Counted from the stretch's first letter, positions 14,484 through 15,109 are shown. The stretch is DNA of 33,428 nt from a virus (IMGVR_UViG_2879759574_000002); one strand, 5' to 3'. Numbers and translations: made by a program. The notes: a model not told the origin generated them from the letters alone.

Positions 14484-14888
14484 ATGGCCCGTAAAGAGAA
14501 ATTTATCACTATTGAAGGTCAGGGACGGGATAAGGGCAAGGTATTTCATCTTACCGAAATGTCTGCCTCACAGGCGGAATGGTGGGCGATGCGTGCCATT
14601 ATGGCAATGGGGCGTGGTGGCGTGGAGTTACCGGATGATGTTCGTAGTCTGGGGATGGCTGCGCTTGCCCTTGAAGGGCTGAAAGCATTATCGAAAATTC
14701 CGCCTGATGAGGCGCGTCCGTTGATGGATGAAATGATGGACTGTGTGCAGTTTGTTCCCGATCCGAAAAAACGCAGCATCCGGAGACCGCTTGTTGAAGA
14801 GGATATTGAAGAAATCATTACCCGTCTTAATCTGCGTGCGGAGGTCTTTAAGCTGCATGTGGATTTTTTCGCTACCGTCGTCAGCTAG
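14484..14888 (+). CDS. Tail assembly chaperone (G-like, zero-frame product)
   Basis: 134-aa ORF between tube-like and tape-measure genes; ends 18 nt after a T_TTT_TTC slippery heptamer. Confidence 0.6.
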   Translation: MARKEKFITIEGQGRDKGKVFHLTEMSASQAEWWAMRAIMAMGRGGVELPDDVRSLGMAALALEGLKALSKIPPDEARPLMDEMMDCVQFVPDPKKRSIRRPLVEEDIEEIITRLNLRAEVFKLHVDFFATVVS

Positions 14889-15109
14889 ATATCCCCGCGT
14901 TATCTCGACCCCGACAGACCGTTCGGGTGGTGGATTACGTTAATGTTCCCCGTACCATTGCGACCGTTATCTCCTCCGGTAAGGCTTCAAAAGCTGAACT
15001 GGATTCTGTCCTTGGTGTGCAGGACTTATGGGATCTGCTGGAAATAATTCATGTGGATGCCCATAACGAACAGGTGATACAGGAGAACAGAAATGGCGCA
15101 GGTACTTGA
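14484..15109 (+). CDS. Tail assembly chaperone, -1 frameshift fusion product (GT-like)
   Basis: From the heptamer at 14864..14870 the -1 frame is open to 15109 (track ORF 14927..15109 is that frame), giving a C-terminally extended product. Confidence 0.55.
14864..14870 (+). promoter_or_regulatory. Programmed -1 ribosomal frameshift slippery heptamer T_TTT_TTC
   Basis: Zero-frame codons gaT TTT TTC fit the X_XXY_YYZ rule; located at the 3-prime end of the chaperone ORF with an open -1 frame downstream. Confidence 0.6.

Follow-up and report, generated by a model that had tools for sequence, protein, structure and literature searches.

In phage lambda the tail assembly chaperone (TAC) products gpG and gpGT are related by a -1 frameshift (Levin, Hendrix & Casjens 1993; Xu, Hendrix & Duda 2004, 2013, 2014; summarised in PMC5009743), and low-level G-T frameshifting of the lambda type is widely conserved among long-tailed double-stranded DNA phages (PMC5009743). 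A second example is the E/E+E' frameshift of phage P2, which takes place at TTTTTTG with no downstream hairpin (Christie et al. 2002; PMC3091744), and a conserved GTTTTT motif is present in the TAC locus of the Pakpunavirus and Vandenendeviridae phages (PMC12846349). Here we describe a locus of this kind in IMGVR_UViG_2879759574_000002, a viral DNA of 33,428 nucleotides (nt) that is referred to below as the window. The locus is a pair of tail-assembly-chaperone genes in a prophage with a contractile tail and, judging from its sequence and those of its relatives, the ancestral phage very probably uses a -1 programmed frameshift to express it.

The features that define the site are listed here; the codons of the zero frame at the chaperone locus start at positions divisible by 3.

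14469..14473, plus strand: GGAGG ribosome-binding site, 10 nt 5' of the chaperone ATG (read from the sequence)
14484..14888, plus strand: gene for the short tail assembly chaperone (G, or TAC-N), 134 amino acids (aa), stop codon TAG at 14886-14888
14849..14851, plus strand: TAA, the last of the -1 frame's stop codons and the upstream limit of the zone in which a shift would be productive
14864..14870, plus strand: in-phase slippery heptamer T_TTT_TTC, read in the zero frame as GAT TTT TTC (D127 F128 F129)
14870..15109, plus strand: -1 frame extension (T, or the TAC-C part), 79 sense codons followed by TGA at 15107-15109

The chaperone ATG overlaps the stop codon of the upstream tube gene (TGATG at 14482-14486), and the protein begins with M and ends with LHVDFFATVVS*. 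The GAT codon is at 14862-64, the run of six T's (T6) is at 14864-14869 and the C follows at 14870. Upstream of 14852 the -1 frame contains many stop codons, and from 14852 it is open until the TGA at 15107-15109, with the result that the zero and -1 frames are jointly open in a 34-nt zone only (14852-14885). Given the stop codons that bound this zone, any -1 shift leading to the long product has to fall within it, and the T_TTT_TTC heptamer is the only X_XXY_YYZ site that the zone contains. The predicted long product (GT) has 208 aa in the window (129 + 79) and 209 aa in intact relatives.

The original prediction, which was made from the window sequence alone, stated that the chaperone open reading frame (ORF) ends soon after a T_TTT_TTC at 14864..14870 that fits the X_XXY_YYZ rule, and our reading of the sequence agrees. 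The 80 additional codons that it assigned to the -1 frame, up to 15109, are counted as 79 sense codons plus the stop from 14870. It also had the -1 frame ending just before the start of the tape-measure gene, and this has to be corrected, as the tape-measure ATG (15093-15095) overlaps the end of the extension by 17 nt. A +1 frame alternative was considered and rejected; that frame is open for merely 18 codons beyond the G stop codon and has no homology.

In the mechanism that we propose, most ribosomes would translate 14484-14888 and produce the 134-aa short chaperone, and a minority would slip back one base with tRNA-Phe in the P and A sites on UUU UUC within U_UUU_UUC. The slipped tRNAs would re-pair on UUU UUU and translation would go on with CGC at 14870, giving a product of about 209 aa that ends at 15109. 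The slippage would occur without an RNA stimulator, and its rate would set the ratio of the short product to the long one. By analogy with lambda gpG/gpGT (PMC5009743) and P2 E/E+E', the N-terminal part shared by both products would coat the tape measure, and the C-terminal part would recruit tube subunits.

The locus resembles the lambda gpG/gpGT system in that the gene lies directly upstream of the tape measure, a short product and a form with a -1 C-terminal extension come from one start, an X_XXY_YYZ heptamer is located a few codons before the zero-frame stop and the second ORF has no separate start. It differs from lambda in the heptamer itself (T_TTT_TTC here and G_GGA_AAG in lambda) and in belonging to a contractile tail that has a sheath and a tube. 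In addition, Pfam and NCBIfam gave no TAC match here, so that the case for kinship with lambda is made by synteny, by the PHROG family and by a fold match of moderate strength.

Some of these differences from lambda are points of likeness to P2, which is also a contractile-tailed enterobacterial phage with a T6 slippery run. The P2 heptamer TTTTTTG occurs in three of the relatives described below; moreover, both systems lack a downstream RNA structure, and in both the end of the long product falls close to the following tail gene or overlaps it. However, the P2 proteins are smaller (E has 91 aa and E+E' 142 aa, versus 134 and 209 aa here), and the tail module around the present locus, with its DUF3383 sheath and SLT-domain tape measure, is unlike that of P2; the two are likened by their arrangement. 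The Pakpunavirus and Vandenendeviridae locus is likewise a myovirus chaperone locus that is routinely misannotated as a chaperone plus a 'hypothetical protein'; there, too, TAC-N carries a poly-T slippery motif at its 3' end and the -1 frame is uninterrupted in all relatives. These phages belong to another family, and the likeness drawn here is one of locus layout.

The identity of the proteins fits this picture. For G the match is phrog_1932, 'tail assembly chaperone' (E 3e-59), for the extension it is phrog_3976 (E 5e-32), and one further family, phrog_18181, covers both G and the extension. Sequence searches of Pfam, NCBIfam and the PDB with G and GT gave no matches. An AlphaFold model of G made with 31 homologues (pLDDT 76.8, pTM 0.63) has fold matches to the HK97 TAC (2OB9) and to YqbN; at the level of the fold, the agreement is moderate yet coherent.

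In intact relatives a DUF3383 sheath is followed by the tube, the chaperone, the -1 ORF, the SLT-domain tape measure and then baseplate genes, in that order. The portion from the tube through the chaperone and the -1 ORF to the SLT-domain tape measure is found in the window, in the intact relatives L001 and L002 and in nine phage records. L001, the closest relative, is an intact prophage of Escherichia coli CFSAN029787 (NZ_CP011416 529968-530596) with 99.5% identity, and the counterparts in it are the tube coding sequence (CDS) at 5839-6285 and the chaperone at 6285-6689. The original prediction had called the locus a G/GT arrangement, and this is now backed by its position, the phrog_1932 family, the conserved slippery site, its phase and the -1 frame.

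The evidence that carries this conclusion comes from the relatives. We gathered 119 loci from phage records, one-genome-per-species contigs and IMG/VR, the locus search being run with an alignment of the five closest sequences, and these loci represent 77 distinct junction sequences. They come from phages and prophages of Escherichia, Salmonella-like bacteria, Serratia, Xenorhabdus, Photorhabdus, Pantoea and Enterobacter and also of Burkholderia, Pseudomonas, Aeromonas, Edwardsiella, Acetobacter and Acinetobacter, and chaperone identity among those sampled goes down to about 30%. An in-phase X_XXY_YYZ heptamer is present at the homologous position in 73 of the 77 distinct junctions. T_TTT_TTC is by far the most frequent (54), followed by G_GGT_TTT (7), T_TTT_TTA (5, or 6 with L098, which is counted under its second heptamer), T_TTT_TTG (3) and T_TTT_TTT (3).

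The constraint on the site is also visible at synonymous positions. Among 63 distinct enterobacterial genes, the third positions of the GAT (D127) and TTT (F128) codons have an entropy of 0.00, and the third positions of the neighbouring two-fold and four-fold codons have entropies of 0.67-1.9 bits. The peptide motif FF-R-x-R-R-x-L-D-I-P follows the slippery site across genera. A comparison with related chaperone pairs had been suggested along with the original prediction, and in it the site, the phase and the -1 frame were all found to be kept.

The second ORF, which is read in the -1 frame, overlaps the 3' end of the first and lacks a conserved start. Databases treat it differently, and one codon has to be introduced here.

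14927..14929, plus strand: GTG, the RefSeq start of a separate 60-aa 'hypothetical protein' in relatives

If this annotation were right, the locus would consist of two independent genes, the second one starting at GTG 14927 and encoding a separate 60-aa protein with no frameshift. PGAP and several phage records do list such a separate small 'hypothetical protein', and the PHROGs family phrog_3976 (67 aa) was built from separate-ORF calls of this type; three other phage records leave the small ORF unannotated. However, there is no Shine-Dalgarno motif in the sequence upstream of GTG 14927, and among 53 distinct sequences the homologous codon encodes Leu 28 times, Val 13 times, Ile 11 times and Met once, so that 39 of them have Leu or Ile. 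Furthermore, the -1 frame is under purifying selection over the 14 codons that lie between the G stop codon and the GTG, as far back as the slippery site. Its entropy in this stretch is 0.75, 0.74 and 1.43 at codon positions 1, 2 and 3, respectively, and I-P-P and a G are invariant while the third positions vary freely. Coding constraint 5' of the GTG, together with the unconserved start codon, implies that translation enters from the slippery site. Finally, the fused homologues that are described next are colinear with the predicted product through the junction. Therefore, we conclude that the GTG is probably not a real start and that two independent genes are a very improbable explanation of the locus.

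Natural fusions of the two parts exist in two phages. Gp47 of Burkholderia phage Bcep781 and 2B_00022 of Ralstonia phage Bakoly are single-frame proteins that are colinear with the predicted GT across the junction, where the alignment is LHVAFLTDREPLDIP in Bcep781 gp47 versus LHVDFFRYRRQLDIP in the predicted long product; Bakoly is similar. No slippery site is present at either fusion junction (the DNA reads GCG TTC CTG). In both phages the next gene 3' of the fusion is a stand-alone short chaperone of phrog_1932 (Bcep781 gp46; Bakoly 2B_00021). Bcep781 gp46 matches G of the window directly (E 2e-7). A direct BLASTP comparison of gp46 with gp47 was not significant (E 1.4), and the link between them is made through the similarity of each protein to G of the window and to phrog_1932. 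The two-gene loci are at 1453-2441 of L004 (Bcep781 gp47, gp46) and 1495-2462 of L005 (Bakoly); the start of the gp47 ORF may instead be GTG 1453, upstream of the annotated one, and with this start the conserved GRDxG motif would be restored.

Both phages thus resemble the window locus in having homologous proteins in a short and a long form, and they differ from it in having no slippery site or frame change, with the long form first and the short form as the next gene. The original prediction had named fused homologues without a slippery site as a finding that would speak against the frameshift. Such homologues do occur in Bcep781 and Bakoly, but they do not refute it, because both phages carry the separate short-chaperone gene and so make both products by another route. 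The natural fusions confirm the predicted junction residue by residue, and they give indirect support to a need for both products.

The two-gene layout was found only in the Bcep781-type and Bakoly-type phages; in the window and its close relatives a single G gene is continued by a -1 extension. These patterns bring up the question of whether the family defined by phrog_1932 and phrog_3976 has switched during evolution between a frameshift and a duplicated gene pair as the source of the short and long forms, and we consider the case for such a switch to be evenly balanced. Most lineages would then use a U_UUU_UUN or G_GGU_UUU frameshift, the Bcep781-like and Bakoly-like phages would have a fused long gene followed by a short gene, and a few lineages would have a U_UUU tetramer only or a C-part in the +1 frame. 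Vladimirov, Gautam and Davidson are said to have proposed, in 2022, a two-gene chaperone solution for T4-like phages (cited in PMC12846349).

Several observations weigh against the frameshift reading. The joined product is annotated in none of the 120 best database homologues, all of which are listed as a 'hypothetical protein' of about 134 aa, and in none of the 11 phage or E. coli records that were examined. We found nothing relevant on a published frameshift for this chaperone family in the literature on Obolenskvirus and Bcep781.

A downstream stimulatory structure is also missing. When the 80 nt 3' of the heptamer were folded and compared with shuffled sequence, for the window and nine relatives, the window had a z-score of +0.22 and the intact relative one of -0.70, i.e., neither folded better than shuffled sequence. 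Across the whole set the z-scores lay between +0.22 and -2.35 and the folds shared neither a structure nor a spacing, and RNAalifold applied to 17 enterobacterial relatives returned 0 conserved pairs. The stem-loop or pseudoknot 5-9 nt downstream that had been proposed as a check on the original prediction is, by both approaches, neither present nor conserved. GGAGG at 14840-14844 was considered as a Shine-Dalgarno-like stimulator and rejected, as it lies 19 nt upstream and is not conserved (the third position of codon 119 varies, 1.63 bits). The site is consequently not of the IS3/IS911 or dnaX type, in which there is a 3' structure at 5-9 nt or a Shine-Dalgarno-like motif 10-14 nt upstream. 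As there is no stimulatory structure, the efficiency of the frameshift may be low.

The exceptions among the relatives need to be mentioned as well. Three lineages keep the U_UUU tetramer alone: the Klebsiella phages (GCT TTT GTA at about 1947-1953 in phage RCIP0114, L008), L031 (GAT TTT TCG) and L039 (GCT TTT CTC). Z_ZZN tetramers and X_XXZ_ZZN heptamers are both -1 frameshift motifs in E. coli (PMC4066793), and this could explain the three lineages. In L029 (Paraburkholderia panacisoli) the C-part is in the +1 frame, with T6C where its relative L034 has T7; this arrangement reflects either an indel of the assembly or another kind of recoding.

Another point is that the slippery site is a homopolymer, and bacterial RNA polymerase slips on A/T runs. 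If the polymerase added one U on T6, normal translation would yield the same long protein (D-F-F-R...), indistinguishable from the one that ribosomal slippage would give. In E. coli genes, U7/A7 heptamers are avoided whichever of the three frames is considered, and polymerase slippage may be the reason (PMC4066793; PMC5009743). However, bacterial slippage has been described on runs of nine A's or T's (PMC5009743) and the run here has six, and the seven distinct relatives with G_GGT_TTT have only four or five T's and still show an in-phase X_XXY_YYZ. The fact that these variants obey the ribosomal rule in phase favours ribosomal over polymerase slippage, and we infer that the slippage is ribosomal in nature; slippage by the polymerase appears quite improbable as the source of the long product.

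Lastly, the window itself no longer depends on the signal. Its sheath and tube genes are cut by the insertion sequences (IS) ISEc22 and IS1, respectively, so the prophage is defective regardless of sequencing quality. With the tail module non-functional nothing selects for the frameshift signal now, and in the window it is a conserved relic.

The window taken alone would not settle the matter. Under a dinucleotide model, the probability of an in-phase heptamer among the 11 eligible positions is about 0.06 and that of 74 open codons is about 0.05. In addition, 34 of the 104 stop-to-stop ORFs of at least 100 codons in the whole window have a -1 frame that is open for at least 70 codons past the stop. 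This high number arises because single-base deletions break genes in the same way: a 1-nt deletion puts the remainder of a gene in the -1 frame and so imitates a frameshift site. With such continuations widespread, the window is not decisive and the comparative data decide.

Over 11 kb, about 25 single-base deletions separate the window from L001, and they are in G/C runs. This observation raises the possibility that the chaperone locus is one ordinary gene, split by a 1-nt homopolymer deletion that turned T7 into T6, given that any such deletion continues a gene in the -1 frame. However, all of the deletions are in G/C runs and none of 38 A/T runs of at least five differs from L001. Moreover, T6 and the two-frame layout are unchanged in eight complete E. 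coli chromosomes, in six of the seven IMG/VR contigs with an identical chaperone and in more than 70 other independent assemblies. T6 is the same in every intact relative and is therefore not one of the homopolymer errors of the window; the artefact explanation is already refuted, and the probability left to it is negligible.

The -1 extension itself has not escaped the contractions, two of which are located inside it.

14893..14896, plus strand: C4 run (C6 in relatives), a 2-nt contraction that takes the extension out of the ancestral frame
14925..14927, plus strand: G3 run (G4 in relatives), a 1-nt contraction that restores the frame

The C6 and G4 states are found in all eight E. coli chromosomes matched and in six of the seven IMG/VR contigs with an identical chaperone; these 15 relatives are otherwise identical. 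As a consequence, the extension in the window has the 10 aa ALSRPRQTVR where the ancestral sequence had 11, PRYLDPDRPFG; it is the ancestral reading, LDIPP..., that relatives from Pantoea, Serratia, Xenorhabdus and Salmonella conserve. The changes from C6 to C4 and from G4 to G3 sum to 3 nt, so it is by coincidence that the extension frame is open in the window, and both of these compensating contractions are most likely sequencing errors. The original prediction had set this frameshift, as likely to be genuine, apart from the homopolymer breaks elsewhere; that holds for T6, which is the same in the intact relatives, but not for the extension, where the two contractions sit.

A contig with an identical chaperone, L040 (IMGVR_UViG_2537561977_000012, about 955-1000), also differs in its homopolymer counts (C7, C5 and GGGGTGTGG), and with these counts only 19 codons of the -1 frame stay open. 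Just 3' of the slippery site, the Pro-Pro C-run seems to be error-prone in more than one data set.

Over a wider comparison, about 35 single-base deletions set the window apart from near-identical E. coli sequences; nearly all are G/C-run contractions (G5 to G4, C6 to C5, etc.), and no A/T run of five or more differs. Examples are at 14267, 14303, 15159, 15388, 16076, 16133, 16714, 17361 and 18016; others are at 18578, 19191, 7197, 7637, 8882, 10866, 11044, 30634 and 31487. They affect the prophage genes, the ISEc22 transposase and ipaH alike, and most of the tail genes are fragmented. At 20402, one GTCA unit (4 nt) has been lost from a GTCAGTCAGTCA repeat in a baseplate J-like gene; with the exception of a 1-nt deletion at 19440, where a G run ends, this is the sole non-homopolymer indel in the alignment. 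The presence of the same contractions in the ISEc22 copy and in ipaH favours a sequencing artefact, and we infer that the G/C-run contractions are most likely errors of sequencing or assembly.

The genes on either side of the chaperone pair are as follows.

13264..14484, plus strand: tail tube gene, directly upstream of the chaperone and interrupted by IS1
15093..17109, plus strand: tape-measure / lytic transglycosylase gene (L001 CDS 6897-8918)

The IS1 insertion in the tube gene is at 13434-14201 (minus strand), and at the break in the alignment L001 6001-6008 is duplicated. A T6 run at 13890-13895 is, on the IS1 coding strand, the A_AAA_AAC site of IS1's own -1 frameshift (insA/insAB'), and RefSeq labels the matching IS1 copy 'programmed frameshift'. 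The window therefore holds a second genuine frameshift signal. The tape-measure gene is broken by five 1-nt G-run deletions, at 15159, 15388, 16076, 16133 and 16714.

ISEc22, an IS66-family element (99.3% identical), occupies 9685-12118 in the DUF3383 sheath gene, and its transposase is broken in three places by 1-nt contractions of C runs. At the end of the prophage, a gene for an ipaH-type type III secretion system effector E3 ubiquitin ligase (29729-31473, minus strand) lies beside pgl (about 32433-33428); it is split into ORFs of 288 aa and 434 aa by a C6 to C5 contraction at 30634. The neighbourhood thus includes ipaH, IS600, IS911 and IS2, with pgl at the right end, and an ipaH/IS context of this kind is typical of Shigella or enteroinvasive E. 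coli.

The mechanism proposed here is a textbook one, with a rule known since 1993 and 2004, and what is new is only the membership of a poorly annotated family. The T_TTT_TTC frameshift is genuine, while the other breaks in the window at G/C homopolymers are most likely sequencing errors, including two inside this very feature.

In conclusion, a long tail assembly chaperone is unannotated in any examined record of a widespread prophage and phage family, which includes prophages of Escherichia, Salmonella-like bacteria, Serratia, Photorhabdus, Pantoea and Enterobacter and phages of Acinetobacter, Aeromonas, Edwardsiella and Burkholderia. The records list its C-terminal part as a 'hypothetical protein' of its own or show an intergenic gap there, and a joined CDS at T_TTT_TTN would correct dozens of records. 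If the family has indeed switched between a frameshift and a gene pair, it would be a natural experiment that asks if the fixed G:GT ratio arising from slippage is indispensable, or if control of two genes, at transcription or translation, can take its place.
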